NCBI GenBank assembly: GCA_002009975.1
Contig: MTLP01000018.1
Span: 1 to 14,057 of the forward strand
Direction of reading: 5' to 3'
Source: Thermococcus sp. JdFR-02
GTDB taxonomy: Archaea; Methanobacteriota_B; Thermococci; Thermococcales; Thermococcaceae
DNA length: 14,057 nt
Shown here piece after piece: positions 1 through 14,057 of the stretch; positions within the stretch are counted from its first letter, which is position 1; every line of letters starts with the position of its first letter. Position numbers and translations under genes: made by a program. Under the pieces are notes generated by a model. The model did not search any database. It saw only the letters and a list, made by a program, of their open reading frames with translations, and was not told the DNA's origin.

Positions 1-25
1 AGGCCACCACTATTACCCTAGTCAT
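1..25 (-). CDS. 5' end of a gene running off the left edge, MTRVIVVA(S?)...; resembles the N-terminus of MinD/ParA-family ATPases
   Basis: Minus-strand ATG at 25-23 overlaps the pgk stop and is preceded by GAGGGG. Only 8 codons are visible; a hydrophobic strand ending in VA-S typically precedes the deviant Walker A (SGKGGxGKT) of MinD-like proteins, but that motif lies outside the window. Confidence 0.4.
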
Positions 26-1241
26 AGCCCCTCGCTTCCCTGAGCACTTCTATACCAGGGAGCTTTTCTCCAGCTAAGAAGAGAAGCATCGCCTTGCCGC
101 CGGTGCTTATGAAGGATATCTTTTCCCTCAGCCCCTGCTTCGCTGCTATAGCAGCGAGGTGTCCCCCGCCTATTACTGTAAAGCCCTTGCACCTCGCCAT
201 AGCTTTCAGTAGCTCCTGGCTTCCCAGGGCAAACTCCTTTATCTCAAAAACCCCTGCCGGACCGTTGGCAGCCACTATGGCAGCGTTTTCGATTATTTTC
301 GTATATCTTGCGATGGTATCGATGCCTATGTCCATAATCTTCTGATTGGGGAGATTGTCAACGCTCGTCTCTGCCCGTGAGCCGTCTCTTTTAAAAGCCA
401 GGTCTGTTGGAACCTGAATCTTCTCCCCGTACTTTTCCAGAAGCTTCTTTGCCTTCTCTACAAGCGTGTCAAATCCCCTCTCCTTCACCACCCTAAGATT
501 AACCTCGCCTATGTCCTTACCCTGCGCGAGGAGAAACACATTCGCGACCATTCCTGAGGTGAGTATAATATCAGCTATGCCACGACTCAAAAGCTTCTCC
601 ATAACCTTCAAGGAGTCTTTCGCCTTGGCTCCGCCAAAGCTGAAAACCTTGGGCTCAGCGTCACTCTTCAAAACCCTGCTCAGATTTTCCACCTCTTTTT
701 CGAGGAGCCTTCCAGCATAGCTGGGGAGAACCACTGGAAAGGCAACAACGCTTGGCTGCGAGCGGTGCGCAACTGCGAAGGCATCGTTGACGTACGCGTC
801 AACGTATGAGGAAAGCTTCCTCACTAAGTTTGTCTTCGCCTGAGCTTCCGGAGGCTTTGATTTAACCTCCTCTGCCACCTCCTCACTGCAGAAGCGAACG
901 TTCTCCAGCATGAGCACCTCGCCGCTCTTCAGGCGGAATATCTCCTCCCTCGCAGCTTTACCAAAGACGTCATCAATGTAGCGCACCTCCTTGCCCAGAA
1001 GCTTCGCGAGGCGCTGCGAGTGTGCCTCTAGTGTAGTGAAATCCTCAAGTCCCGGACGGCTCTGGTGGGCAAGCAGAACCAGCTTCGCATGTGAAAGCTC
1101 TTCTATGGTTGCGATGTGACTCCTTATCCTTGTGTCGTCGAGGATTGCACCGGTGCTCGGCTCAATTGGCGAGTTTATGTCGATGCGCATCAAGACGCGC
1201 TTGTCTTGTAGCTTTGCTCCATCCAGTGTGGGCAGTCCCAA
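18..1241 (-). CDS. pgk: Phosphoglycerate kinase (archaeal type), 407 aa
   Basis: PGK motifs RIDINSP, LAHQSRPG, LENVRF, YVNDAFAVAHRSQPS, FGGAK, ANGPAGVFE, IGGGH, ISTGGKA. TTG start with GGTGAT (1247-1252, minus strand) 5 nt upstream. Confidence 0.97.
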   Translation of the reverse strand: MGLPTLDGAKLQDKRVLMRIDINSPIEPSTGAILDDTRIRSHIATIEELSHAKLVLLAHQSRPGLEDFTTLEAHSQRLAKLLGKEVRYIDDVFGKAAREEIFRLKSGEVLMLENVRFCSEEVAEEVKSKPPEAQAKTNLVRKLSSYVDAYVNDAFAVAHRSQPSVVAFPVVLPSYAGRLLEKEVENLSRVLKSDAEPKVFSFGGAKAKDSLKVMEKLLSRGIADIILTSGMVANVFLLAQGKDIGEVNLRVVKERGFDTLVEKAKKLLEKYGEKIQVPTDLAFKRDGSRAETSVDNLPNQKIMDIGIDTIARYTKIIENAAIVAANGPAGVFEIKEFALGSQELLKAMARCKGFTVIGGGHLAAIAAKQGLREKISFISTGGKAMLLFLAGEKLPGIEVLREARGYD

Positions 1242-1273
1242 CTGAGATCACCAGTGAGATTTCTTCCAGCATC

Positions 1274-1298
1274 GCTATATATATTTTTGGCTTTTTAT
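1274..1298 (-). promoter_or_regulatory. Putative TATA box plus purine-rich BRE for pgk
   Basis: Minus strand reads ATAAAAAGCCAAAAATATATATAGC; the TATA-like element at 1276-1284 is about 35-43 nt upstream of the pgk start. Confidence 0.55.
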
Positions 1299-1345
1299 TG
1301 GAGTCGTTATCTTCGCTGCATGGGGTTGTAAGCGCACACCTATGA

Positions 1346-1366
1346 GGGAGATAAGTTATAAATAAC
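1346..1366 (+). promoter_or_regulatory. Putative BRE/TATA promoter of the pilus ATPase operon
   Basis: GGGAGATAAG-TTATAAATA (TATA at 1356-1364), about 37 nt before the ATG at 1401; SD-like GGCTGAT at 1391-1397. Confidence 0.6.
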
Positions 1367-1400
1367 CCCCGAGTTAGATAATCATTTTAAGGCTGATATC

Positions 1401-4400
1401 ATGCCTTATGACTTCTTTGACTTTGAGAAAAAGAAAAAAGGAAAAGGTAAAGATATTACTGGAATTCTTAGTGGAGCTGCTCAGGGAGAAAGCCCTAAAA
1501 ATAGGTTTGATTTCAAGGTTACACGAGGTGAGGTAGCACACACCCAGCGCTCGATTGGTGGTCTTCTGGACGCTGCGAGGGAGGAGGCTGGCAGCTACCT
1601 AGATAGCTTTGATAAAATTCGCCGAATCGGTGACGAGGTGATCGGAGAGATCCTAGAGGAGGCAAAAGACCACCGTATAGTAAGAAAACCTGGAGAAAAG
1701 TTACCAATATACGTTGTATTTCTGCCGGAATTAACCGAGAAAGACAAAAAGATTTTGAAAGACATTGAACGTCGTGCCGTGGCCGAGATAACCATTGACC
1801 CTGAGAGTTTTCTGGATAGAGAAAAGAGAAGAGAGGCTTTTCTCAAGGAAGTTGTGGCTCTAATTGACCTGAAGTACCCCAATATACCAAAGCACAAGCA
1901 GCACGCCTTCGCCGAGCTGATAGTTCAGAACATGATAGGCTATGGCTTACTGGAGCCGCTGCTCAACGACGATGCCCTTGAAGAGGTAATGGTAGTGGGC
2001 ACCAAAAAACACGTGTACGTGTACCACAGGAAGCACGGAATGTGCAAAACCAACATTGTCTTTGAGAGCGACGCGGAGATTGAGAAGATAATAAATAGGA
2101 TTGCGAGAACCATCGGCAGGAGGGTTGACCTCACCTCTCCGCTGCTCGACGCCCGCCTCCCTGACGGCTCGCGTGTAAATGCCACTATTCGTCCCGTTTC
2201 TCTTGACGGACCTTCCCTTACCATAAGAAAGTTCAGGAAAGACCCCCTCACGGTTGTAGACATAATAAAATTCGGCACCATGACCACTGAGCTAGCGGCC
2301 TTTCTCTGGCTGGTCGCAGAGGGCTATGGCGTAAAGCCTGCAAATTTCCTAGTGAGCGGCGGCACCGGCAGCGGCAAGACGACGACGCTCAACTGCCTGG
2401 GCAGCTTTATACCCCCAGCAGACAGGGTTATCTCAATAGAAGACACGGCGGAGCTTCAGCTACCTCTGGAGCACTGGATTCGCCTCGAAACGAGGCCACC
2501 GAACGTGGAGGGCAAAGGCGAGATAAACATGGAGATGCTGCTGAAGAACACACTGCGTATGCGTCCCGATCGCATCATCGTCGGTGAGGTGCGCGGCGCT
2601 GAGGCGAGAACTCTGCTGGCGGCGATGAACACAGGGCAGAACGGCTGCCTAGGCACGCTGCACGCGAACACAGCGCGAGAGACCATAACCAGGCTCACCT
2701 CTGCGCCAATGAATGTGCCAAAAATAATGATCCCCTCTCTTGACTTCATCTTCATGCAGAACCGCTTCTCCTACAAGGGCAAGACGGTGAGAAGGATAAC
2801 TGAGATCGCCGAGGTTGTTGGAATCGAAAACGGAGAGGTAAAAATAAACATAATCTACGAGTGGGACCCCCGCGATGACACCATAAAGCCCACTGGAGTG
2901 CCCTGCCTTTTAAAGAGCAAAATCGCAGAGCTTCGCGGCGTCTCACTTAAGGATGTGGACGCCGAGATAGAGCGCAGGAAAAAGGTTCTGGAGTACATGG
3001 TCGAGAACAACTTGCGCGGCATTAAGGAGGTGGGGAGGGTAATAAGGGAGTATTACACTAACCCCGAGCAGCTTCTCAAGGAGATTGAGGGGATAGAGTC
3101 TGATAAAGAGGTGGGAGAAGAGGAGGCAAAGAGGCGGAGGCGAAGCTATCTGCTTCTCTTGGGTTCAGAGAAGGGAGACGTAAAGGAGACAGTGCTTGAC
3201 CACAATGCACATCGTAAGATAGTGAAGTTGGAGAATGAGAAAAATCCCCACTACCTCGTGCCCTTACCCAAGCTCTCCTCTCGCGAAAAGCAGCTCCTGG
3301 AGGAGATAGAGAATCGCGCGGTAAAGGAGATAAACATAGACCCGGAAAGCATAACCGACAGAGAGGAGAGAAAGCGAATATTCATGCAGCGTGTTCTCGA
3401 GGTCATAGAGCGCTACTTCCCAGAAGTGCGCATGGCCAAGCGCAAGGACATAGCCAAGCTTGTGGTCAACAACATGGTGGGCTATAGCTTACTTGAGTTT
3501 CTGCTCAGCGACGACCAGCTTGAGGAGATAATGGTCATAGGCACGAAGAAGCCGGTCTATGTTAACCACCGCAATTACGGAAACTGCAAAACAAACATTG
3601 TCTTTGATACAGATGAGGAGATAATAAGAATAATCGAGAAGATCGCTGCATCTGTTGGAAGAAGGATAGACAAATCTTCGCCGCTGCTGGACGCCCGTCT
3701 CAGTGATGGCTCGCGTGTGAACGCAACCATACCCCCAATTTCCCTAGATGGGCCTACAATAACAATAAGAAAGTTCCGCTCGCAGCCTTTGACAGTGGTG
3801 AACCTCATAGAGTTCCGCACCTTGAACATAGAGGTGGCTGCCTACCTGTGGTTGGTGGTGGAAGGGCTGGGGATAAAGCCGGGCAATATTCTCGCCGCCG
3901 GAGGTGCAGGCTGTGGTAAGACAACAACGCTCAACGTGCTGTGTTCCTTCATACCCGAGACTGAGCGTGTAATAACCATTGAAGATACCGCAGAGCTTAC
4001 ACTTCCGATTGAGCATGTAGTTCGCCTCGAGACACGCCCGCCCAACGTTGAGGGTGAGGGCGAGGTTACAATGGACGACTTGGTGAAGAACACGCTACGA
4101 ATGCGTCCTGACCGCATTATTGTGGGCGAGGTTCGCGGACGCGAGGCGAGGACGCTCTTCACTGCCATGAACACTGGTCATGATGGCTGCATGGGCACTG
4201 TGCACGCGAACTCTGCCAAGGAGACCCTGATAAGGCTCACAAACCCGCCCATGGAGGTGCCCGAGATAATGCTCCCCGCCCTCGATTTAATACTCATGCA
4301 GAACAAGATTTACCACGAGGGCAAGACTCTGCGAAGAATAACCGAAGTGGCAGAGGTGGTGAGTGACGATCAGGGAAAGGTGAGCCTCAACAACGTTTAT

Positions 4401-4655
4401 GAGTGGGACCCCAAGAAGGACGACCTGGTAGCGACTGGGCAGCCAAGCGTGCTGAAGCAGAAAATCGCCCGCTTGAAAGGTATTTCCATGAAAGACCTGG
4501 AGGAAGAGCTCAAGCGAAGGGAGAAAGTCTTATCATGGATGGTTGAGAATCATATAACAGACATAAGAGATGTCTCGAAGACATTCAACAGGTACTACTC
4601 AGACCCCGAAGGCTTTCTGCAGGAGATTGAACTTCACAAGAGCATAGGGGAATAA
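1401..4655 (+). CDS. Type IV pilus/Tad assembly ATPase (VirB11/CpaF/TadA family) with two complete ATPase units in tandem, 1084 aa
   Basis: All family motifs occur twice: SPLLDARLxDGSRVNAT, TIRKF, Walker A (GGTGSGKT at 2358-2381; GGAGCGKT at 3900-3923), Asp box IEDTAEL, LRMRPDRIIVGEVRG (Walker B), His box (MNTGQNGCLGTLHAN; MNTGHDGCMGTVHAN), RRITE and YEWDP. Followed by two T2SS-F genes and pilins. Confidence 0.95.
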   Translation: MPYDFFDFEKKKKGKGKDITGILSGAAQGESPKNRFDFKVTRGEVAHTQRSIGGLLDAAREEAGSYLDSFDKIRRIGDEVIGEILEEAKDHRIVRKPGEKLPIYVVFLPELTEKDKKILKDIERRAVAEITIDPESFLDREKRREAFLKEVVALIDLKYPNIPKHKQHAFAELIVQNMIGYGLLEPLLNDDALEEVMVVGTKKHVYVYHRKHGMCKTNIVFESDAEIEKIINRIARTIGRRVDLTSPLLDARLPDGSRVNATIRPVSLDGPSLTIRKFRKDPLTVVDIIKFGTMTTELAAFLWLVAEGYGVKPANFLVSGGTGSGKTTTLNCLGSFIPPADRVISIEDTAELQLPLEHWIRLETRPPNVEGKGEINMEMLLKNTLRMRPDRIIVGEVRGAEARTLLAAMNTGQNGCLGTLHANTARETITRLTSAPMNVPKIMIPSLDFIFMQNRFSYKGKTVRRITEIAEVVGIENGEVKINIIYEWDPRDDTIKPTGVPCLLKSKIAELRGVSLKDVDAEIERRKKVLEYMVENNLRGIKEVGRVIREYYTNPEQLLKEIEGIESDKEVGEEEAKRRRRSYLLLLGSEKGDVKETVLDHNAHRKIVKLENEKNPHYLVPLPKLSSREKQLLEEIENRAVKEINIDPESITDREERKRIFMQRVLEVIERYFPEVRMAKRKDIAKLVVNNMVGYSLLEFLLSDDQLEEIMVIGTKKPVYVNHRNYGNCKTNIVFDTDEEIIRIIEKIAASVGRRIDKSSPLLDARLSDGSRVNATIPPISLDGPTITIRKFRSQPLTVVNLIEFRTLNIEVAAYLWLVVEGLGIKPGNILAAGGAGCGKTTTLNVLCSFIPETERVITIEDTAELTLPIEHVVRLETRPPNVEGEGEVTMDDLVKNTLRMRPDRIIVGEVRGREARTLFTAMNTGHDGCMGTVHANSAKETLIRLTNPPMEVPEIMLPALDLILMQNKIYHEGKTLRRITEVAEVVSDDQGKVSLNNVYEWDPKKDDLVATGQPSVLKQKIARLKGISMKDLEEELKRREKVLSWMVENHITDIRDVSKTFNRYYSDPEGFLQEIELHKSIGE
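1638..4632 (+). repeat. Intragenic tandem duplication: unit 1 ~1638-3090, unit 2 ~3180-4632, period 1542 nt (514 codons)
   Basis: Same 1542-nt offset at the unit start (1638/3180), Walker A (2358/3900), His box (2637/4179) and C-terminal YY (3051/4593). Manual count gives 69/97 identical residues in the LLEPLL...TIRKFR segment. DNA similarity is still visible, e.g. tgcaaaac[c/a]aacattgtctttga and gagtgggacccc. Confidence 0.95.
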
Positions 4656-4656
4656 G

Positions 4657-5793
4657 ATGGCAAATGCAATATTAAGGCTGATAGAAAAAATAGGTGAACT
4701 GACGGTAACCGGTGTAGAGAGCGTAGCCAGGAGAGCCCAGGAGGTATCTCTTGCTCTATCTGAGCAGGAAGAAGCTGCAAAAAAGCTCCGGGAGAAGAAA
4801 GAAAAAGAGAAGGAGGCGAGAAAGCGCGCCATTGAAGAGAAGCTCCTTAAGCTTCGCGAGGCTGTTGCCCTGGAGGAGGAGCTTCCTGGCGAGGAGCCTT
4901 TTGAGATTGTTCCGGAGCGTGAGGAGCTACGCGAACCCTTCGCCACTAGGCTGGTGAACATTGTTTCAGACCTCTTTTCGGGTTATACAAGAGCACCCTC
5001 GTCATTCTTCGCAAATATTCAGGAAGACCTGTACAAGGCGAATATCCTCATGCCAGCATCCAAATACATAGCCTTTGCGATAGGGGCGAGCGTTATTGTT
5101 GCTATTGCCTCCGCGGTGCTCTTCAGCATACTCTTCGCCGCCACTCTCGGCGCTTTGGGCTCGCTCATCGGCATAGTGCTGGGCCCCCTGCTTGGAGTCT
5201 TCGTCTTTTTCTACGCGAGAATCTACCCAAAATCTAAGGTCAAAGCGCGCTCAGATGCCTTTTCAAGGGAACTTCCCTTTGCGCTTAGACACATGGCAAC
5301 GCAACTCACCTCTGGCGCGGGTTTGCTGGAAACAATGCGTAGCGTCGCCCAGAGCGGCTACGGTGTGCTCAGCGAGGAGTTCAGGCGCGCAATACTTGAA
5401 ATAGAGCGCGGCGCAACCATAGAGGAAGCCTACGACAGGATGAACCTGCGCATAGACTCACCCGGACTAAAGAAGGCTTCCCGCCAGATAATTTCAACCC
5501 TGCGAACTGGCGGAAATCTTGCAAACACGCTAAAGATAATTGCCGAGGAAGTTGCAACCGAGATGAGAATGAAGCTTAAAGACTACATACAGATTTTGAA
5601 TACATTCTCGCTGATGTACATGTTTGCACTTGTTGTGGCACCTGTGCTTATAACAACCCTTGTAATAGCCATGGGCATAGCGATGAAGGGGCTTCCAATA
5701 CCTGCGAATGTGATGTGGATACTCTACCTCGCCTTTTTCGGTGTTGGCATCTACATGTCCTTCATGGTCAAACGCTTTGAACCAAAGGTGTGA
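4657..5793 (+). CDS. Type II secretion system F family (TadB/TadC-like) pilus platform membrane protein with a charged N-terminal extension, 378 aa
   Basis: ELPFALRHMATQLTSGAGL...YGVLSEEF...IERG...TGGNLANTL is the T2SS-F pattern; two hydrophobic segments before and two after it; starts 1 nt after the ATPase stop. Confidence 0.92.
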   Translation: MANAILRLIEKIGELTVTGVESVARRAQEVSLALSEQEEAAKKLREKKEKEKEARKRAIEEKLLKLREAVALEEELPGEEPFEIVPEREELREPFATRLVNIVSDLFSGYTRAPSSFFANIQEDLYKANILMPASKYIAFAIGASVIVAIASAVLFSILFAATLGALGSLIGIVLGPLLGVFVFFYARIYPKSKVKARSDAFSRELPFALRHMATQLTSGAGLLETMRSVAQSGYGVLSEEFRRAILEIERGATIEEAYDRMNLRIDSPGLKKASRQIISTLRTGGNLANTLKIIAEEVATEMRMKLKDYIQILNTFSLMYMFALVVAPVLITTLVIAMGIAMKGLPIPANVMWILYLAFFGVGIYMSFMVKRFEPKV

Positions 5794-5795
5794 AA

Positions 5796-6758
5796 ATGGC
5801 AGAGAAAGAAGAAGTTAAGGTTAACAGGCTGCGAAGTATCCTCGAAAAGCTTCGCATTCCCCAGTTTCTCGTTCCCAGGCGATTTCTCATCTCTATGGAG
5901 ATAATGCTTGCAAATGCAAACATCTCTTTCTCTGCCCGTGAGTGGATGGGTATATTCTTCGCCCTCGGAGTTGTGCTTTTTGTGCTAATCTCGCTTATTG
6001 TAAACCTCCCTGCCGGACTTGGGGCATTTATATTCACAGAAGCGCTCATGGTTGCAATACCCAAAATGCAGGCAGACAAGCGAAGGGCAGAGATAGAGGA
6101 GATGCTTCCTGACGCGTTGCACCACATGGCGGTTTCTATCCGCACGGGCTTGGTGCTGGAAGCGGTGATTCAGGAGATTGCAGAGGCAGAGTACGGCGCT
6201 CTCAGCGACGAGTTCGCTCAGATAACCCTTGAGATGCGCAGAGGCAGACCTCTTAAGGATGCGCTTATTGCTTTTTCCAAGCGAACCGGCTCAAAGCAGA
6301 TAGAGCGAGCGATGCGTCTGCTTCTGGAAGGAATAGAAAGCGGTGGCCCAATAAGCGATGTACTTGAGGAAGTGAGCGAGGACATTAGAGCAGTGCGCAT
6401 GATTCAGCGCGAACGCAAGTCTCTGACTTCGCAGCAGGTTTCTTTTCTTGCGATGGCTAGCTTAATGGCAGGGCCCTTCGTGATGGGCGTTGTGGGTGCG
6501 CTGCCAACGATTATGACGCAGGCGATGGCTGGTACAGGTGGAGCGGAGCAGTTTCCACTGGAGGAGATCAACTCCATTATGACAGCGCTCTCTTTCTACG
6601 TTGTGGCTCAAGCTGTAAGCGGGGGGATAATGATGGGAGTTGTTATGTACGGTGATTTTAAAAAAGGATTTAAATTCGCGCTACCGATGGGTGTAGTAGC
6701 ATATATCGTTTTCTGGGGAGTAAAGAGTCTTATGCCCGGGATGCTCGCCGCCTTCTAG
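5796..6758 (+). CDS. Second T2SS-F family (TadC-like) pilus platform membrane protein, ~320 aa
   Basis: LPDALHHMAVSIRTGLVL...YGALSDEF...MRRG...SGGPISDVL motif with flanking TM segments. ATG at 5796 is preferred (GGTG 5 nt upstream); the alternative GTG start at 5790 overlaps the upstream stop. Confidence 0.92.
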   Translation: MAEKEEVKVNRLRSILEKLRIPQFLVPRRFLISMEIMLANANISFSAREWMGIFFALGVVLFVLISLIVNLPAGLGAFIFTEALMVAIPKMQADKRRAEIEEMLPDALHHMAVSIRTGLVLEAVIQEIAEAEYGALSDEFAQITLEMRRGRPLKDALIAFSKRTGSKQIERAMRLLLEGIESGGPISDVLEEVSEDIRAVRMIQRERKSLTSQQVSFLAMASLMAGPFVMGVVGALPTIMTQAMAGTGGAEQFPLEEINSIMTALSFYVVAQAVSGGIMMGVVMYGDFKKGFKFALPMGVVAYIVFWGVKSLMPGMLAAF

Positions 6759-6797
6759 CTGTGCATTACTGTAAACCCAGGATATACATCCACGTAA

Positions 6798-6813
6798 CCG
6801 AGAGTTATATATA
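6798..6813 (+). promoter_or_regulatory. Putative dedicated BRE/TATA promoter for pilin 1
   Basis: CCGAGAG-TTATATATA (TATA at 6805-6813) in the 107-nt gap after the second platform gene; near-perfect SD AGGAGGTG at 6851-6858. Confidence 0.7.
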
Positions 6814-6865
6814 GGCGCAAAACTATAATTTTCTTTAAATCTTGTCCCACAGGAGGTGCCGAAAC

Positions 6866-7075
6866 ATGTTAAAAAAATTTTTAAAAGAGGAAAAGGCTCA
6901 GGGCGCGATTGAGTACATCCTGCTGGCGGGCGGCATTATAGTCGCTGCAGTGGTTATCTTCGTGATATACAAGAATATCGCACAGACTGCTGGAAATAAG
7001 ACTAAGAATACCATCGAGGAGACTGCTACGGTTGTCGGCAATGTGGTAAACAACGAGTTAGCAAACCTTAGCTAG
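6866..7075 (+). CDS. Short archaeal type IV pilin with class III signal peptide (probable major pilin), 69 aa
   Basis: MLKKFLKEEKA|QGAIEYILLAGGIIVAAVVIFVIY: charged leader, K-A at -2/-1, Q+1, E+5 and a hydrophobic helix (QxxxExxxL class III pattern). ATG at 6866 is 7 nt after AGGAGGTG, so the ORF-track start at 6842 is unlikely. Confidence 0.9.
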   Translation: MLKKFLKEEKAQGAIEYILLAGGIIVAAVVIFVIYKNIAQTAGNKTKNTIEETATVVGNVVNNELANLS

Positions 7076-7088
7076 ATTAACTACTACC

Positions 7089-7102
7089 TTTTTTTCTTTT
7101 TT
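7089..7102 (+). terminator. Oligo(T) archaeal intrinsic terminator after pilin 1
   Basis: TTTTTTTCTTTTTT begins 13 nt after the TAG; a further T-rich tract lies at 7111-7120. Confidence 0.65.
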
Positions 7103-7133
7103 GCATGTACTTTTTTATTTCGTAGGGAGGCAA

Positions 7134-7370
7134 ATGGCATCATTTAAAGATTTTATTATAAAGAACATTTACAGTTTTGCTTTGGAAACAAAAGCACAGG
7201 GAGCAGTAGAGTACATACTTATTGCTGGTGCCATTATTGTAGCTGCAATTATATTCATACCAATTTACAAAGAAATAGCAAAAACAACCGCTGAAAAAAC
7301 AAACGAAAGTGTGATTCTCACGGGAAAAGTTACGCAGAACAGTGTAAAGGAGGAGATAGCTAATCTTTGA
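7134..7370 (+). CDS. Second short type IV pilin with class III signal peptide, paralog of pilin 1, 78 aa
   Basis: ...ALETKA|QGAVEYILIAGAIIVAAIIFIPIY; ATG at 7134 follows GGGAGG. The mature part aligns without gaps to pilin 1 (30/57 identical by manual count). Confidence 0.88.
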   Translation: MASFKDFIIKNIYSFALETKAQGAVEYILIAGAIIVAAIIFIPIYKEIAKTTAEKTNESVILTGKVTQNSVKEEIANL

Positions 7371-7396
7371 ATTATGAATAGCTTGTTGACAACTTC

Positions 7397-8530
7397 TTAA
7401 TAAGGGTTCCAGTCTTTAACTTCCTTAAATTTTGGAAATTCGCCGTATTCGTATTTGCTAAATAATTTTCCCCACTCAGTTATCATAAACTGCTTTATTT
7501 TTCTTTTTCCGATTAAATTATACCAAATCCAATCATGATACAATTCTGATAAAAAGATAAAAAATTTAAATATGGGAGAGTAAAACAGAAGATAATGTAT
7601 CCATTTGATTTTTGCCGTATTCTTTCTTAATATCTGATCCCATTTAATTACCAGGCTTTTTTTTGTTATGAAACCAAAGTTTAGTTTTTCGAGATCTTTT
7701 TTATCAATACCAATAATTTCGATCTGGTCAATATCTCCAACTCCTAATCCTCTATCATGGGCTATTTTAATGTAATCCACTTCCATAGGATCAAATCCCA
7801 TTATCTTTGCGGCTACTGCATCTATAGCTACTTGATCTCCACCTGCTAGTATTATATTACCAATAAAAGGCTCCATAGTTCTTGGACCTGCACCGTTTCC
7901 GCAAACACAACCATCCATAACTGCAAAAATTCCTTTATGGATCTCTTTCTGAATAGCTAATAAATCAACGAGGACTTCATGTATCTTCAGGTGCGCGTGA
8001 TGCCTATATTTCGGTATTAAACCGCCAAAAGCATTTTTCATCGCTCCGGTCGTGGTCGTGTGCCCATGTGTCTTAATTGTTGGTAAATGAATTATATTGC
8101 TTCCGATTAAAATTTTTGGTATTAATATTTTTTCGAATATATCTTTCATAGCAAGCATCTCTGTTTTGGGTTCATAATTTACCCACTCCACATCTGTCAA
8201 TGGTAGGAACCTAGTTTTATATTGCTTGAGAATAGGAAGCCATTTGTTATAATAAGCACCTTTCCAGGGATGTGTTACCACAGTTTGATTTTCCACAGCC
8301 AAAACATCATTGTATCCATCTTCTTTTAGAGTTTTCAGTATACCTTCAAGCTGCCATGGCGGTGTGGAGCATGCTGGAAAAAATAAAGTCCAAGATAAAT
8401 TGAGTTTTAAAATTGTTTTCACATCTTTAGATAAAAATTTTCCATATTCTATCATACGCATCAATTTGGAGTAGTCCTCCAAGATCCTTCCAGGTGATGT
8501 TTTTAACACCGCAATTCTTGATTTTTTCAT
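7397..8530 (-). CDS. DUF362 domain-containing protein (putative metal/Fe-S enzyme), ~377 aa, no C-terminal ferredoxin domain
   Basis: Motifs LKLNLSW...ACSTPP, LPTIKTHGHTTTTGAMKNAFGGL, MDGCVCGNGAGP, DQVAIDAVAAKIMGFDP and AHDRGLG. Likely start is MKKSRI at 8530 (10 nt after the upstream stop, GGGG upstream) rather than 8584. Confidence 0.85.
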   Translation of the reverse strand: MKKSRIAVLKTSPGRILEDYSKLMRMIEYGKFLSKDVKTILKLNLSWTLFFPACSTPPWQLEGILKTLKEDGYNDVLAVENQTVVTHPWKGAYYNKWLPILKQYKTRFLPLTDVEWVNYEPKTEMLAMKDIFEKILIPKILIGSNIIHLPTIKTHGHTTTTGAMKNAFGGLIPKYRHHAHLKIHEVLVDLLAIQKEIHKGIFAVMDGCVCGNGAGPRTMEPFIGNIILAGGDQVAIDAVAAKIMGFDPMEVDYIKIAHDRGLGVGDIDQIEIIGIDKKDLEKLNFGFITKKSLVIKWDQILRKNTAKIKWIHYLLFYSPIFKFFIFLSELYHDWIWYNLIGKRKIKQFMITEWGKLFSKYEYGEFPKFKEVKDWNPY

Positions 8531-8540
8531 GTATCTGCCC

Positions 8541-10160
8541 CTATTTTTGTTTAATTTCAATGTATTTTCCCATCTGTTTAACATTTTTTGGCAATTTTGA
8601 AGAAAATATTCTTAGGCTTTCGATCAATCTATCCTCCTCCTCAGGATCAACTGCATAGAATGAAACAGTATCTCCTCCGCATACCACGTTATTTGAGATT
8701 TTCCATTCTCCAACCTTAATCCATTGGGGAGGAAGCCCACCATACGACTCAAACCAATGGTCATAAACAATTGCGATCTTTACGTCTTCGTTCTTCGCTA
8801 ACTTGTATATGTACTCAGTATTATAAGAACTCTCTCTTTTTGCTTTAGCTACTTCTAAACTACCTAAACCCTTTAAATCCAAGCATTTAATATCTGCTAT
8901 AAAGTTGATTGTACCGATATCATTTGCAGCAACAGTTTCTCCCTGATAGAATTCTTTAAGGAATAAAGCCATTTGATACTGCTGTTCATAGATATTTTTT
9001 GTAGCAAGAGGTGTAATTATTGAAGATACATATCCCCTTATTGCAAATGGTGAGATAAAGAGAAAGATAAGTAGTATCATTGCTATGTATTTCGGAATTA
9101 AATATTTGTCAAACAATAGCTTTTCTGGTAGATATTCCCGTACCTCTAGAGCGATGGTAAATATACCAAAGGCAATTAAGTAGGCTTCATATCTATAGAA
9201 CCATCCAGTCTTCGCAAATAACATATGCAAAAAGGCAGTCGTAATAAAAATAAAAAGGAGGATCGTTTGCTCTCTCCAGAGAGTATTTGACCTGATAAAT
9301 TTCAGAATAAAAAGAATTGAAGTGGTAAATATGAGAATTAAAATGTGGGATTCTGATATTCGAGTAATAAATAGATAAATAAAATTCCAAATGCCTACAG
9401 AAGAAATTACAGGTATATTATTTTTAATAAGAATTGAATTTGGGAAGAAATACCATCCATTAGAGATCGAGATTAAACCGTATATTACAATTGGGACAAG
9501 ACTTAGTGAGATCAACAGGAAGGATTCAAGCAACCGCTTCCTCATAATGAATAAGGTGCTCACAGCCATCACCAAAAACAACCCCTCATACCGAGTCATG
9601 GGTAGTAAAGGTGCTAATATTAGCAAAAATGAAAATTCTTTATTTAAATCAGAACGCTCTTTTGATAAAATTTTAGCAGAAAGATAAGCAAAGAAAATTG
9701 TGATGAGTGTGTGTAACATATGTTCCATACCGGTAAATATAATCGCAGGAAAAGGTGTGAAGAATATTATCGAGAGCAGAACAATAAAATTGTAGATGGA
9801 TGGAAATTTGTATTGTTTAAGTAAAATATAAATCAGATACGTTGTGAGTGTTGCAAATACAACATTTAATACAAGCGGAACAGCTTCGTTTACCCCAAAT
9901 AAGAAAAATATTACGAATAGCAATAATGGATAAAGTAACGATGAGGATGAGGATGAAAACTCATATTTAGTCACACCCCAAACCCCATGTTGAGCAAAAT
10001 TTTTTGCCATAGCCATGTGAATATAAGGGTCATCAAGAGCGTAGACAAGATGTCCATGAGTATAAATAAGAGAAGCATTTAGCAATACCGCTATTATTGC
10101 CAAAAGGAATCCCACTGATATAATTAGCGGCCAATGTCTTAACAATGTCACCCTTATCAT
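8541..10160 (-). CDS. Polytopic GT-C-fold glycosyltransferase, AftB (arabinofuranosyltransferase)-like, 539 aa
   Basis: Acidic DD motif after TM1 (LDDPYIHMAMAKNF...G), then SSSSLLY, GMEHML, TRYEG, FPNS and RY motifs, about 10 or more hydrophobic segments, and a C-terminal soluble domain with DIG...LDLKGLG. This layout is typical of polyprenyl-phosphosugar-dependent transferases. SD GGTGA overlaps the upstream TGA. Confidence 0.65.
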   Translation of the reverse strand: MIRVTLLRHWPLIISVGFLLAIIAVLLNASLIYTHGHLVYALDDPYIHMAMAKNFAQHGVWGVTKYEFSSSSSSLLYPLLLFVIFFLFGVNEAVPLVLNVVFATLTTYLIYILLKQYKFPSIYNFIVLLSIIFFTPFPAIIFTGMEHMLHTLITIFFAYLSAKILSKERSDLNKEFSFLLILAPLLPMTRYEGLFLVMAVSTLFIMRKRLLESFLLISLSLVPIVIYGLISISNGWYFFPNSILIKNNIPVISSVGIWNFIYLFITRISESHILILIFTTSILFILKFIRSNTLWREQTILLFIFITTAFLHMLFAKTGWFYRYEAYLIAFGIFTIALEVREYLPEKLLFDKYLIPKYIAMILLIFLFISPFAIRGYVSSIITPLATKNIYEQQYQMALFLKEFYQGETVAANDIGTINFIADIKCLDLKGLGSLEVAKAKRESSYNTEYIYKLAKNEDVKIAIVYDHWFESYGGLPPQWIKVGEWKISNNVVCGGDTVSFYAVDPEEEDRLIESLRIFSSKLPKNVKQMGKYIEIKQK

Positions 10161-10164
10161 TCCC

Positions 10165-11121
10165 TCACCCTTTTATTTTAAAACCATATTTAAAACCATA
10201 AATAGATAAAATAGACAGCGTAAAAAGTCCAATTAAAACACCAAACCAAAGGGTGCAAAATCTGATTATCAGAGTTGAAGCGATTGCAACGGTCTTGGTA
10301 ATACCACTGAAAATCAAAATTCCCACCATGCTACCTTCAGTGACGCCTAACCCTCCAGGAATCATGCTCACCGCTCCTACTATAGTGGAAAAACTGAAGG
10401 CGAAAACAGGTAAAAGTAGGGAAATCTCTAGTCCAAATCCCTCAATAACCAAAAACAAAGCTAAACATTCGAAAAACCACGATAAAACGCTTATTCCTAC
10501 TACAATAGTTAAATTCTTTATTTTGAAGAGTGTATGGGTACTTAAATACAAGTTTTGTACTGTTTCTGTAAATCTTGATATAAAGGGAAAATTAAAATTT
10601 ATTAACTTTATAAACATTTTTTCTGACTGGATTATCATAATTATTATAGAAATAACAAAAATTGTAGTTATAAGTACTTCTTTACCGTATTTGAAAACAG
10701 AATATCCAATTGAAGCCAATATTATTAATCCAATTAAATCTGTAAAACGTTCTGCAAATATAATCGGAAGTGTCTTACTCATTTCAACACCATTCAATTC
10801 TTTTAATAGATAAGATTTAAATGCCTCCCCCAACTTTACCGGAGTAACAGACATAGATAATCCACTTAAGAATATTGCCATACTATCTCTCCTGCTTATG
10901 TTGATTTTTAAGCATCTTAAATAATAATCCCACTTGAAAAATCTTAATACATAGTTCAAAAAGGTTAGTACTAGTATCAAAGGGATATATGTCCATTTAA
11001 AGCCCCTAAAAACGATAATCAGATCATTAATGTCTGCATAAATTGAAAGGGTCGTATATATCGCAACAGCACTTAGTAATGAAATTATTATTTTGTTCCT
11101 TATTTCCATCTTTCCCACCAT
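10165..11121 (-). CDS. Lysylphosphatidylglycerol-synthase TM domain (UPF0104/flippase-like) membrane protein, 318 aa
   Basis: LRFFKW, TPVKLGEAFKSYLLK, IFAERFTD, IPGGLGVTEG and LIIRFCTLWF are characteristic of this family; about 8 TM segments. Alternative start at 11109 (GGTGG upstream). Confidence 0.88.
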   Translation of the reverse strand: MVGKMEIRNKIIISLLSAVAIYTTLSIYADINDLIIVFRGFKWTYIPLILVLTFLNYVLRFFKWDYYLRCLKINISRRDSMAIFLSGLSMSVTPVKLGEAFKSYLLKELNGVEMSKTLPIIFAERFTDLIGLIILASIGYSVFKYGKEVLITTIFVISIIIMIIQSEKMFIKLINFNFPFISRFTETVQNLYLSTHTLFKIKNLTIVVGISVLSWFFECLALFLVIEGFGLEISLLLPVFAFSFSTIVGAVSMIPGGLGVTEGSMVGILIFSGITKTVAIASTLIIRFCTLWFGVLIGLFTLSILSIYGFKYGFKIKG

Positions 11122-11151
11122 TTATAATATAGCCTTTATTAAAACATTCAA

Positions 11152-11241
11152 CTACCATGTTCGTGTATATCCAAATTTTTCATTTAGCACTTTCAATATA
11201 AAAATACAGATTATCCCAAGAGTTAAAGGAAACCGCTCCAA
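11152..11241 (-). CDS. Possible 29-aa small hydrophobic peptide or gene remnant (MERFPLTLGIICIFILKVLNEKFGYTRTW)
   Basis: TTG at 11241, TAG at 11152, GGAGGT 10 nt upstream (11252-11257), same strand as both neighbours, within a 199-nt gap. Confidence 0.2.
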   Translation of the reverse strand: MERFPLTLGIICIFILKVLNEKFGYTRTW

Positions 11242-11320
11242 CTTTTTTTAAACCTCCCAGTGTTAAGGATAAAAATAGAACATTTCTACCATAGGTGGAA
11301 CAGATTTATCATCATAGTTT

Positions 11321-12217
11321 TCAAGTTTTTGTTAAACTGTACAAATCCATGCTTAAAACTCCATAATGAGCACCATAGAGTATCATAACAACTAAAACAA
11401 CCCACAAAATTATACTAATCAACATTCCTTTATCCTTAAACAGCATTTCCGGTTCTCCCCCAATGTTCTTTACATAAACCAAAAACATATATCTGAAAAG
11501 ACCGTATAATACCAAAGGAATTGTTATCATCATCCAAATATTATCTGCAAGAAAGGTGTATAAGAAATATGACATGATTAATGCAGCAGTAGTGATATTA
11601 ATCATCTGATCAAGCATTTTAGACGAATATTCTCCAAGAATTTTACGGTGATTTCTAGCTTCTTCTCCAAGTAATGTCAATTCATGCCTCCTTTTACAAA
11701 GTGCTAAAAATAAAGCCAGTAAAAAAGCACAAATTATTAGCCAAGGAGAAATAAATACATTTATAGCTAGGCATCCGGCAACTGCTCTTATGACAAAGCC
11801 AATAGAAATAACCAGCAAATCAACTATTATGATATTTTTCAGAAACATCGAATATGAGAGGATTAACAGAATATATGCTATTGAAACTGCAAAAAATAAC
11901 ATATTTATTAAATAGGCGCCCAATACCCCTACAAAAATCAATATTACCGCAAATAACAGAGCATGAGATACTTTTAACTCTCCTGAAGCAATTGGTCTGT
12001 TCCTCTTTTTGGGATGCTTCCTATCCTTTTCTATGTCTAAAATGTCATTAATAATGTACTCACTCCCGGAAAGTATGCAAAATATAATAAATGCAGAAAT
12101 TACATCAAACCATTTCTGAAAGTTTAAGAGATTTAAGGAGAATACAATACCAACAAATAAAACTAAGTTCTTATACCATTGCTGTGGTCTCATCGAAATT
12201 ATGAGTTCTTTTAGCAT
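11321..12217 (-). CDS. UbiA-family decaprenyl/polyprenyl-phosphate phosphoribosyltransferase (DPPR synthase-like), 298 aa
   Basis: RPQQWYKNLVLF, YIINDILDIEKDRKHPKKRNRPIASG, YSMFLK, KRRHEL, YGLFRY and GEPE motifs match the Rv3806c-like phosphoribosyltransferase branch of UbiA; about 9 TM segments; SD AGGAG at 12227-12231. Confidence 0.9.
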   Translation of the reverse strand: MLKELIISMRPQQWYKNLVLFVGIVFSLNLLNFQKWFDVISAFIIFCILSGSEYIINDILDIEKDRKHPKKRNRPIASGELKVSHALLFAVILIFVGVLGAYLINMLFFAVSIAYILLILSYSMFLKNIIIVDLLVISIGFVIRAVAGCLAINVFISPWLIICAFLLALFLALCKRRHELTLLGEEARNHRKILGEYSSKMLDQMINITTAALIMSYFLYTFLADNIWMMITIPLVLYGLFRYMFLVYVKNIGGEPEMLFKDKGMLISIILWVVLVVMILYGAHYGVLSMDLYSLTKT

Positions 12218-12247
12218 TTTATCTTACTCCTTTGTGAGTTATGGCAT

Positions 12248-12273
12248 TTCATATAATATTGCAGATATATGAA
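12248..12273. promoter_or_regulatory. Inverted repeat TTCATATA-N10-TATATGAA in the divergent intergenic region; possible operator or overlapping TATA elements
   Basis: Perfect 8-bp arms at 12248-12255 and 12266-12273, about 30-55 nt upstream of the phosphoribosyltransferase start. Confidence 0.35.
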
Positions 12274-12385
12274 TTTTCCTTTCAGATAATGAACAAGAGT
12301 GCGGAAAATTTTAAATTGGGTATTGTTGATTTCACTAAGTGTGATAAAACAACTTCAGCGCTTATTGATTTGGGTTAAATTGAAC

Positions 12386-13873
12386 ATGGAGGAAACATCT
12401 AAGTCAGGAAAATTTATTCTTATTTCGACTCTATCCGTTATGATACTGGCAATTATAACTAATCTAGATGTTAAGGCAGCTTACTACATACAAATGGTCC
12501 TGTATCCATATTTTGGCGGATCTAGTGGCCTAAAAATTTCGTTTTTCTTTATTTTCATTCTAATTCCTTTATTTATAAGATCCATAACCTATAAACTAAA
12601 GATAGAAATCCGAATCGGAAATCCTATAAATTTAATGTTACTATATCTCTTCCCTAACCTTGTGCTTTATGGTGTTGGATTTTTTTTGTTTAAACATGAA
12701 TTAGAATCACGTGCATTGCCGAATTCTGCAGAATTTTTAATTCCCATAAATTCATTAAGTTATAGTGCTCCAAATTCCTGGCTTCATCATCATCTATTAA
12801 AGCCAACCCTTGCCTATGCCCTTGACATGCTTTATCTCAACGGAATTTTCAATGTGGATTTTCTAGAGTGGACACACGTTATCCCCGGAGAGGTATATAA
12901 AGCTACTGCGGTATTGCTTATAATGTCCTTCTTACTGTGGGTTATTCTTGGTTATATGACACTCAGCGAATATGGCATTACCCATTACTTTGTCCTCTCT
13001 GTGCCCGCTTTTGGGATATTTGTAACATCTATTGATGGAGGAATTTTCACATCCTTTTCATATGCCAGTTTGGGAGCCTACTTATCATTCTTGGTGTACC
13101 TAATATCAAAAAAAGAAAATATAAAAAATTGGCTTTCGATACCGCTAATTTACTTATTTTCAACACTTCCTTTTCTTTTAGTTATTTACACAATTGTCCT
13201 ACTTAAAATTCCAGCATATGATAATAGTAACAATCCACAGGCACTGCTATTATTTCCAACGATTCTGTCTATCTTTCTGCTTTTTAAATCATTCCAGACA
13301 GCAAATAAAAAATTACGCATAAGAATCGCCGCATGCTTAATTGTTCTGTTAGTTACTGCATCTTCCTTAGGTTTTTTAATTATGTATAAAGGATTTAGAA
13401 ATTATGGCATAGTATCGAGTAGAGTCTGGAATGCTACCATATATTCTCCTGCTCTTGAAACTTCAACCCAAGAAGAAATTGAGAATATATTTTCATCTGA
13501 GGGGATTAAAATCAAGATAATTTTTAAAGAAGGCCCTTTCATATTTGGTACTTTCTCTTCAAATAAACCATTTAAATTTGGGGAAATAATTAATTTGGAA
13601 TTCGTGAAAGCAGCTAGAAATTCCAATGGAGGGATTTATGGCGTTTCCCCAGGTAGAATTGGAGATAATAAAACAGTGGTGATTTTTTTAAATAGGAAGG
13701 TTACCCCTCAAGAGATAAATAAACTCTCCAATCATCCTTGCGTAAAAGACTTTAAAATCCTAGAAAATGGTGTTAGTATTGAGGTGCTTATGAGACATGA
13801 TCTGGCTGTCGAAAGTGTTGGGATGATATTTAAGGATCCGCATCTTTTAGGTGCAGTAGTAAATTATTATTAA
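12386..13873 (+). CDS. Hypothetical polytopic membrane protein (~9-10 TM) with a C-terminal soluble domain, ~495 aa
   Basis: Long ORF with alternating hydrophobic segments, polar loop motifs WLHHHLLKP and SIDGGIFT, and a hydrophilic C-terminal ~160 aa. ATG at 12386 (MEETSK) is preferred over GTG at 12299. Confidence 0.8.
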   Translation: MEETSKSGKFILISTLSVMILAIITNLDVKAAYYIQMVLYPYFGGSSGLKISFFFIFILIPLFIRSITYKLKIEIRIGNPINLMLLYLFPNLVLYGVGFFLFKHELESRALPNSAEFLIPINSLSYSAPNSWLHHHLLKPTLAYALDMLYLNGIFNVDFLEWTHVIPGEVYKATAVLLIMSFLLWVILGYMTLSEYGITHYFVLSVPAFGIFVTSIDGGIFTSFSYASLGAYLSFLVYLISKKENIKNWLSIPLIYLFSTLPFLLVIYTIVLLKIPAYDNSNNPQALLLFPTILSIFLLFKSFQTANKKLRIRIAACLIVLLVTASSLGFLIMYKGFRNYGIVSSRVWNATIYSPALETSTQEEIENIFSSEGIKIKIIFKEGPFIFGTFSSNKPFKFGEIINLEFVKAARNSNGGIYGVSPGRIGDNKTVVIFLNRKVTPQEINKLSNHPCVKDFKILENGVSIEVLMRHDLAVESVGMIFKDPHLLGAVVNYY

Positions 13874-14057
13874 TCATTACAATATGGTATAGTATACAAA
13901 ACTCTGGGCTTCGCCCTCTCTTTGGTATATATGTCGAAAACATTTCCTTGAGCATCAATAGCAATGAATCTCGCTATTGTCAGGTTGACTTCACCGAGAA
14001 TAAAGTGGTGGGTGCTTTTTGACTTTGCTGTCCACCAATTGGAACCAAAGCCATATA
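13870..14057 (-). CDS. 3' end of an unknown gene entering from the right edge (...YGFGSNWWTAKSKSTHHFILGEVNLTIARFIAIDAQGNVFDIYTKERAKPRVLYTIPYCND*)
   Basis: 61 open codons on the minus strand from the edge to TAA at 13872-13870; the stop interlocks (TTAA) with the stop of the convergent gene. Confidence 0.55.
   Translation of the reverse strand, partial: YGFGSNWWTAKSKSTHHFILGEVNLTIARFIAIDAQGNVFDIYTKERAKPRVLYTIPYCND

Follow-up and report, generated by a model that had tools for sequence, protein, structure and literature searches.

A covalent tandem dimer of an Epd/Tad-type filament ATPase at the head of an archaeal pilus-type operon

The motors of type IV filaments are modelled as six identical subunits, and the locus described here raises the question of how such a motor is built when two subunits come joined in one chain. 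The locus lies in a stretch of 14,057 nucleotides (nt), referred to here as the window (contig MTLP01000018.1, positions 1 to 14,057 of the forward strand, assembly GCA_002009975.1, Thermococcus sp. JdFR-02). The gene at 1401..4655 on the plus strand, which starts with ATG and has 1084 amino-acid (aa) codons before its stop codon, encodes a type IV filament ATPase of the Epd/Tad type (CpaF-like) as a covalent tandem dimer with two T2SSE units, which would give a natural linked version of such a motor. It heads a tightly packed operon with split TadB/TadC-like platform genes, and two Flp-like pilin genes follow; because of these platform and pilin genes the locus is assigned to a pilus system of the Epd (EppA-dependent)/Tad type.

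Two complete ATPase units in one reading frame

The ATPase reading frame passes through all 1084 codons without an internal stop. When the N-terminal half was compared with the C-terminal half by BLASTP, 284 of 483 positions were identical (59%; 588 bits, E = 0.0), with a single gap of four residues in the alignment. The Pfam model T2SSE (PF00437) matched the protein in two stretches with 329.8 bits against a cut-off of 24.9, and a hidden Markov model (HMM) of the unit, built from the two halves of this same ATPase, spanned both units entirely, at aa 82-564 and aa 592-1084. A preliminary description of the window had proposed two full secretion-ATPase units in one uninterrupted frame, to be checked by an HMM scan for two T2SSE regions; the stop-free frame, the two placements of the unit HMM and the two T2SSE stretches agree with this proposal. 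The constant offset of 514 codons that it gave for the two repeats is found past the four-residue gap, but ahead of the gap the offset is 510. It had also explained the extra length by a second copy of the ATPase rather than by an intein, and the two T2SSE stretches and the identity of the halves confirm this; an intein was ruled out as the source of the extra length, since both units cover the whole unit HMM.

The chain begins with a disordered extension (1401..1592; aa 1-64), for which the AlphaFold2 predicted local distance difference test (pLDDT) is about 30; in the orthologs, the extension ahead of the unit HMM varies in length around a median of 74 aa and reaches 199 aa at most. Unit 1 (u1), delimited by the unit HMM, the alignment and the AlphaFold2 model, spans 1644..3092 (aa 82-564) and carries the Walker A motif GGTGSGKT (aa 320-327), the Asp box IEDTAEL, the Walker B glutamate E396 and the His-box histidine H421. 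It is followed by a charged, disordered linker (3093..3173; aa 565-591; pLDDT below 50 for aa 566-593), of which the string quoted in the preliminary description covers aa 564-593 (nt 3090-3179). Among 70 orthologs the linker has a median length of 25 aa and a range of -11 to 60 relative to the ends of the unit HMM. Unit 2 (u2), at 3174..4652 (aa 592-1084), has the same domain order as u1 and carries the Walker A motif GGAGCGKT (aa 834-841), the Walker B glutamate E910 and the His-box histidine H935, with a match to Pfam PilB3_C at its C-terminus (aa 1016-1081); all of these features lie on the plus strand. With a T2SSE domain above the cut-off, and with Walker A, Asp box, Walker B glutamate and His box in both units, the protein belongs to the PilT/VirB11-like (T2SSE) ATPases.

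AlphaFold2 modelling of the whole chain with 68 aligned orthologs gave a mean pLDDT of 81.7 and a predicted template modelling score (pTM) of 0.75, and disorder (pLDDT below 50) was limited to aa 1-64 and aa 566-593. In the model, each unit shows the same order of elements, namely a small beta domain, a three-helix bundle, an N-terminal domain (NTD), a RecA-like C-terminal domain (CTD) and a helical C-terminal domain. Superposition of each unit yielded template modelling scores on the target of 0.78-0.84 for Archaeoglobus fulgidus GspE2 (2OAP), 0.76-0.84 for FlaI and 0.63-0.75 for CpaF, and the sequence search ranked the three structures in the same order. GspE2 (PDB 2OAP/2OAQ) and FlaI (4II7), the best matches per unit in both sequence and fold, are single-unit proteins whose alternation is conformational and not encoded in the sequence. 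CpaF/TadA of the Caulobacter Tad/Flp pilus (PDB 8RJF, 8RKD, 9E24) belongs to the T2SSE family as well (E = 2.7e-83; structurally aligned residues 38% identical) and shares the disordered N-terminus, the three-helix bundle, the NTD and CTD, the split TadB/TadC platform and the small Flp pilins. However, CpaF has one unit in a chain of about 420-500 aa and assembles as a homohexamer, whereas the window protein is archaeal, holds two units in 1084 aa and has the additional PilB3_C-like helical domain at its C-terminus.

The Methanococcus Epd pilus likewise has two platform proteins with one T2SSF domain each and short pilins with class III signals, and in the available parts of the two reports Epd systems have one ATPase gene each and the archaeal Epd pilus is the proposed ancestor of Tad (PMC6668835; 10.64898/2026.02.24.707734). 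The window system has the split platform and the short class III-signal pilins of Epd/Tad systems, and the genome encodes prepilin peptidases that may serve it, but it does not have their single-unit ATPase: the Epd ATPase is described as single-unit, while the window ATPase, likened to it by family and gene context, has two units.

Conservation was counted in an alignment of both units from 70 orthologous clusters, with the motif names customary for the family and positions taken from the alignment. The GKT and lysine of Walker A, the Asp-box IEDTAEL, the Walker B glutamate, the His-box histidine and the arginine of a TIRKF motif were 97-100% conserved in both units. Columns conserved to at least 95% numbered 164 in u1 and 149 in u2, conservation per domain was nearly equal in the two units, and only five positions were fixed differently between them (S272/T786, F301/Y815, S319/A833, L381/V895 and Q413/H927). 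The N-terminal domains were the most diverged part, with the same consensus residue at 53 of 99 positions. Judged from these alignments, neither unit is degenerate and there is no sign of specialisation of one unit; both copies are under purifying selection, with all catalytic motifs intact. The suggestion in the preliminary description that the active sites are non-equivalent, or specialised for extension versus retraction, is not supported by these counts, given equally kept catalytic motifs and five fixed differences. A division of labour in whatever topology, with u1 serving extension and u2 retraction, or with one unit binding TadB and the other TadC, is in our view improbable. The five fixed differences and the diverged N-terminal domains would fit it, as would the double CpaF proteins of Chloroflexota, which also adjoin split TadB/TadC genes; against it, the catalytic and arginine motifs are equally conserved, the overall conservation of the units is similar, and split platforms work with single-unit ATPases in bacterial Tad and in Epd systems, as far as the available text of the Epd study goes (PMC6668835).

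Distribution in relatives and origin by internal duplication

Whether the fusion is real was assessed first at the linker. Contigs of four runs from three studies cross it (3090-3180, the region for which the preliminary description proposed a check of spanning reads) without a stop or frameshift, with 0 indels and 0-2 synonymous changes; two of the four runs may be the source of the window DNA, and the other two carry two substitutions, both synonymous. A genome search for the two-unit gene covered 40 relatives, 37 of them of the same class, and stop-free two-unit orthologs were present in 30 of the 37, in 11 of 12 families. Twenty-four of these were single full-length matches, three were cut by contig ends and still span the linker, and three that matched in two pieces (G011, G023 and G036) were checked frame by frame, each proving to be one stop-free frame holding two units. 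Seven same-class genomes lack the gene, and no split version of it was found. The relatives therefore encode a fused gene and not two separate genes, the outcome named in advance as contrary to the fusion. In the protein database, about 70 clusters of 984-1203 aa contain the same two units at 50-90% identity to the query; a search for full-length homologs of about 1080 aa in related archaea had been proposed in the preliminary description. The closest orthologs have 85-90% identity over 98-100% of the query, and the named clusters of the fused family are labelled Hydrothermarchaeota, Hydrothermarchaeales or 'CpaF family protein'.

These data bear on the concern that the frame is an artefact, produced when an assembly or sequencing error merged adjacent paralogous genes, or a decaying pseudogene fusion. 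Adjacent paralogous ATPase genes do occur in the same genome, at a locus on contig C6 described below, but 30 independent assemblies and about 70 protein clusters show the fused frame free of stops, the four runs bridge the linker without an indel and both units are under strong purifying selection; we regard an artefact as scarcely credible.

The identity between u1 and u2 at third codon positions is 0.39, so low that the repeat must be old, neither a recent duplication nor an assembly echo. In a FastTree phylogeny of 250 units, 75 first units and 75 second units form sister clades with a support of 96, and the few exceptions in labelling are all partial proteins; its outgroups are single-unit proteins of Thermococcus and a single-unit paralog from the genome itself, encoded on contig C11. 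An IQ-TREE analysis of 56 rows under the LG+C20 PMSF model gave Shimodaira-Hasegawa approximate likelihood ratio test (SH-aLRT) values of 95 (u1), 99 (u2) and 92 (the two together), with mirrored internal branching. Sister clades with mirrored branching indicate one internal tandem duplication that predates the radiation of the lineage, followed by co-divergence of the units. On the evidence of these trees, the two-unit gene is the product of a single internal duplication in the ancestor of an archaeal lineage, probably Hydrothermarchaeota, and of the two outcomes that the preliminary description had set out for a tree of the halves, sister clades by duplication or separate clades by fusion, it is the first that was obtained.

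Multi-unit relatives and the proposed ring

Multi-unit chains were also found outside this lineage. On the contigs L020-L026, bacterial CpaF appears as a double in six records from Chloroflexota, Anaerolineales and Ktedonobacter (813-872 aa from stop to stop) and as a triple in a metagenome-assembled genome of Anaerolineae (a 1172-aa frame). The one double checked for context (L024, 6001-12558) lies in a Tad locus together with genes for a vWA protein, TadB and TadC. In the aligned protein clusters of the Chloroflexota-type multi-unit CpaF proteins, every unit keeps GKT, the catalytic glutamate and the histidine. Archaeal-like short doubles of 818-900 aa have units that form sister clades of their own. 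The Chloroflexota doubles and triples and the archaeal short doubles resemble the window protein as multi-unit T2SSE chains beside TadB/TadC with catalytic motifs in all units, but they differ from it in their independent origin, their separate clades and their shorter units, which lack the N-terminal domain. The two-unit architecture, which the preliminary description had taken to be singular, is instead the rule in its lineage, with independent multi-unit forms elsewhere.

A duplication shared by the window family and the short doubles, an idea prompted by similar Walker A variants in u2, was rejected by the approximately unbiased (AU) test (p = 0.002, delta lnL 80.85), a result to be read with the caveats that the group was named after inspection of the tree and that gene conversion could mimic it; the outgroup single units carry Ala at the variant position, which leaves this character ambiguous. 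One further protein, P0009 (1680 aa), has four T2SSE units and corresponds to two short doubles: units 1 and 3 group with the u1 clade, units 2 and 4 with the u2 clade. In its unit 3, Asp replaces the Walker B glutamate. The longest contigs listed for P0009 and for the 863-aa double P0085 have equal lengths, so that the two may be neighbours. A metagenome scan with P0009 found no locus, a scan with P0093 found two (one with a single-unit gene, the other with a single unit split by an insertion), and all clusters that a protein-atlas search retrieved for a triple and for a short double were single-unit.

Known structures offer a precedent for a repeat of two subunits within a ring of this family. 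In the available parts of the respective papers, CpaF is described as a rotary hexamer with two-fold symmetry, the axis of which advances in 60-degree steps (PMC12019362), and open and closed interfaces alternate in 2OAP/2OAQ and in a FlaI structure, which amounts to a two-subunit repeat (PMC6858323). We consider it probable, with a rough probability of 0.6, that three chains of the window protein form one six-unit ring. In this ring the units would alternate as u1-u2-u1-u2-u1-u2, the ring would dock on the TadB/TadC platform, and it would power pilus assembly, and possibly retraction, by a rotary cycle of the CpaF type. Under a two-fold rotary cycle, opposite ring positions would be occupied by one u1 and one u2, and every position would cycle through all nucleotide states; both unit types would therefore have to stay competent, which matches the conservation observed. 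The fusion would fix a 1:1 stoichiometry and a strict alternation of two slightly different protomers. The other multi-unit relatives, which mostly have two or three units, divisors of six, all with GKT, glutamate and histidine, count in favour of a single ring, and the pTM of 0.75, reached despite the disordered linker, suggests a defined packing between the units. A two-chain complex prediction of u1 (aa 65-565) with u2 (aa 594-1084) gave a score of 0.09 (mark 0.32), which counts neither for nor against the ring.

Tandem ATPases of other superfamilies are built in another way. The type II AAA+ proteins NSF, p97/Cdc48 and ClpB carry two ATPase modules per chain and form stacked rings, and subunits of ClpX have been linked artificially to break ring symmetry. 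Unlike the window protein, these belong to a different ATPase superfamily and are not filament motors. By analogy, six chains of the window protein could form a hexameric u1 ring with a coaxial u2 ring, in which one ring may face the platform and the other be regulatory, or the two faces may be split between extension and retraction. Tandem P-loop ATPases of other families commonly stack in this way, and the disordered linker of about 28 aa could reach between two rings. Two outward faces are also conceivable because both faces of the CpaF ring have been proposed to engage the platform, as stated in the available portion of that report (10.64898/2026.02.24.707734). The four-unit P0009 would suit a body of 12 units (3 x 4) better than one of six. 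On the other hand, one ring often degenerates or specialises in stacked ATPases, whereas in the present family conservation is equal for the two units in every domain, even in the N-terminal domains, which two rings would bury between them. Triple-unit relatives would need three stacked rings, the linker of some orthologs, measured from the unit ends, has a length near zero or below it, and the solved family structures matched here are single-unit chains, none of them stacked. We consider stacked rings unlikely, although less so than a division of labour between the units, and favour the single alternating ring.

Several points weigh against the single alternating ring in a pilus motor and are taken together here. 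The packing argument from pTM, which comes from a model of the monomer, is indirect. Four units, as in P0009 (seen in 5 contigs), do not divide six, and the tandem ATPases of the type II AAA+ class do form stacked rings. The two-unit gene is missing from 7 of the 37 same-class relatives. The assignment to a pilus rests on homology and gene context, and one of the two pilin candidates falls short of the Pfam Class_IIIsignal cut-off.

In the full-text literature searches, no description of a multi-unit or fused secretion ATPase was found, with the limit that supplementary tables of census studies may list such proteins. The available portions of PMC4858521, PMC13705601, PMC6668835, PMC6711533, PMC6946796 and 10.64898/2026.02.24.707734 contain no mention of one, and a 2026 census states, in the part of it available, that fusion does not occur among the type IV filament ATPases of archaea (PMC13705601), a census-level statement that the present finding corrects. 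The sequences themselves are already public under the names 'CpaF family protein' or 'FlaI', and it is the two-unit architecture that appears to be undescribed.

The number of active subunits that type IV filament motors need, and whether their working symmetry is two-fold or three-fold, are debated, according to the accessible parts of two structural papers (PMC6858323, PMC12019362). Two linked and slightly different units allow every second ring position to be mutated without mixing of subunits. In other ring ATPases, linked subunits had to be engineered for such experiments. Together with the parallel doubles and triples of Chloroflexota, this suggests that ring protomers of the family have a general evolutionary path to fusion. 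More tentatively, multi-unit CpaF-type motors (x2, x3, perhaps x4) might be recurrent and independent inventions in archaea and bacteria that hard-wire a 3 x 2 or 2 x 3 arrangement, the Hydrothermarchaeota motor being an obligate hetero-hexamer of alternating units, in which u1 and u2 differ in how they contact the TadB-like and TadC-like proteins; if this were true, such a hetero-hexamer would break the six-fold equivalence assumed in current rotary models.

Operon context and other ATPase genes of the lineage

A TATA-like box, TTATAAATAA, at 1356..1365 on the plus strand was read by eye as a putative archaeal promoter, 36-45 nt upstream of the ATPase start. Behind the ATPase gene and on the same strand lie the genes of a TadB-like platform protein (4657..5793; 378 aa; Pfam T2SSF 73.5 bits) and a TadC-like platform protein (5790..6758; 322 aa; T2SSF 65.4 bits), each with one T2SSF domain, so that the two-protein platform supposed in the preliminary description is indeed encoded next to the motor. 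The TadB-like gene starts 1 nt past the ATPase stop codon, and the GTG start of the TadC-like gene overlaps the TadB-like stop. Among the loci of 11 relatives, the TadB-like synteny is kept in 10, the remaining one (L014) ending with its contig inside the ATPase gene, and the TadC-like start is matched in nine, with L012 and L014 ending before that gene; the order ATPase-TadB-TadC is held in every relative's locus with a flank long enough. By tblastn, the TadB-like/TadC-like pair is the only split-platform pair of the genome.

Two Flp-like pilin candidates, 53% identical to each other, follow on the plus strand. Candidate 1 (6842..7075) has a KAQG/AIEY motif ahead of a hydrophobic helix and scores 20.6 bits with Class_IIIsignal, below the cut-off of 23.7; candidate 2 (7101..7370) has a KAQG/AVEY motif in the same position and scores 27.5 bits, above it. 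Their true starts are probably internal ATG codons, at 6866 and 7134, respectively. Two genes for Peptidase_A24 (prepilin peptidase) are located elsewhere in the genome. Right past the TadC-like gene the GC content drops from about 0.51 to 0.29-0.36 (window 6800-14057). This low-GC island (G000:C2, about 217-227 kb) holds the two pilin genes and genes for a DUF362 protein, an LPG_synthase_TM protein, a UbiA prenyltransferase and two proteins of 539 and 524 aa with 8-9 predicted transmembrane segments and no Pfam match. Windows of 2 kb with a GC content below 0.40 number 41 and are scattered over the 1.99-Mb genome.

The two-unit protein reaches 670.7 with the NCBIfam model NF058587 (FlaI equivalog; cut-off 550), and only by summing the two units. 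This summation of unit scores is probably why some of these proteins bear the name 'flagellar protein FlaI' (JGI), and annotation pipelines mislabel two-unit proteins as FlaI in this way. The protein was rejected as an archaellum motor (FlaI/ArlI), since its neighbours are TadB/TadC-like and Flp-like genes and a KaiC-like/ArlJ-like locus lies elsewhere, on contig C6. At that locus (L100; G000:C6:8000-22000), genes at 9118-9819, 7431-9125, 5809-7434 and 4069-5799 on the minus strand comprise a KaiC-like (ArlH-like) gene, a pair of neighbouring ATPase genes of ArlI-like type and a gene for a platform protein with two T2SSF domains. The two ATPases, of 564 and 541 aa, are encoded with a 4-nt overlap and have intact Walker A and B motifs; two ATPase genes in one subsystem run against the statement of a 'single copy per subsystem'. 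Apparent fused frames at the corresponding locus in two relatives (G001 and G015; 1109 and 1122 aa) were rejected, because a TGA stop lies between the same-frame genes.

Among the 150 nearest 50%-identity cluster representatives, about 10 are true multi-unit proteins, and in about 35 an insertion of several hundred residues interrupts a single unit. The insertions (P0122-P0261; L109 5428-8766) occur at three recurring sites, near Walker A and at unit positions of about 273 and about 340, and are tentatively read as inteins. With about 35 of 150 nearest representatives split in this way, the caveat about inteins raised in the preliminary description was well aimed.

The closest single-unit paralog of the fused units is a 487-aa protein, 57% identical, encoded at L112 (G000:C11:34001-48000). 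In the stretch 2441-7322 (+) of that locus it stands directly behind genes for a protoglobin-PAS protein, a GAF-PAS histidine kinase and a response regulator, no platform gene was found at the locus, and the paralog may be an orphan motor ATPase under the control of signals. In relatives, single-unit ATPase genes of a C7-like paralog family stand side by side in two further pairs, at G019:C12 and at L107 (G027:C8:11000-15000). Their identity to the query of 48-51%, lower than the 59% between u1 and u2, argues against these pairs as split relatives of the fused gene, and paired ATPase genes seem to recur in the lineage.

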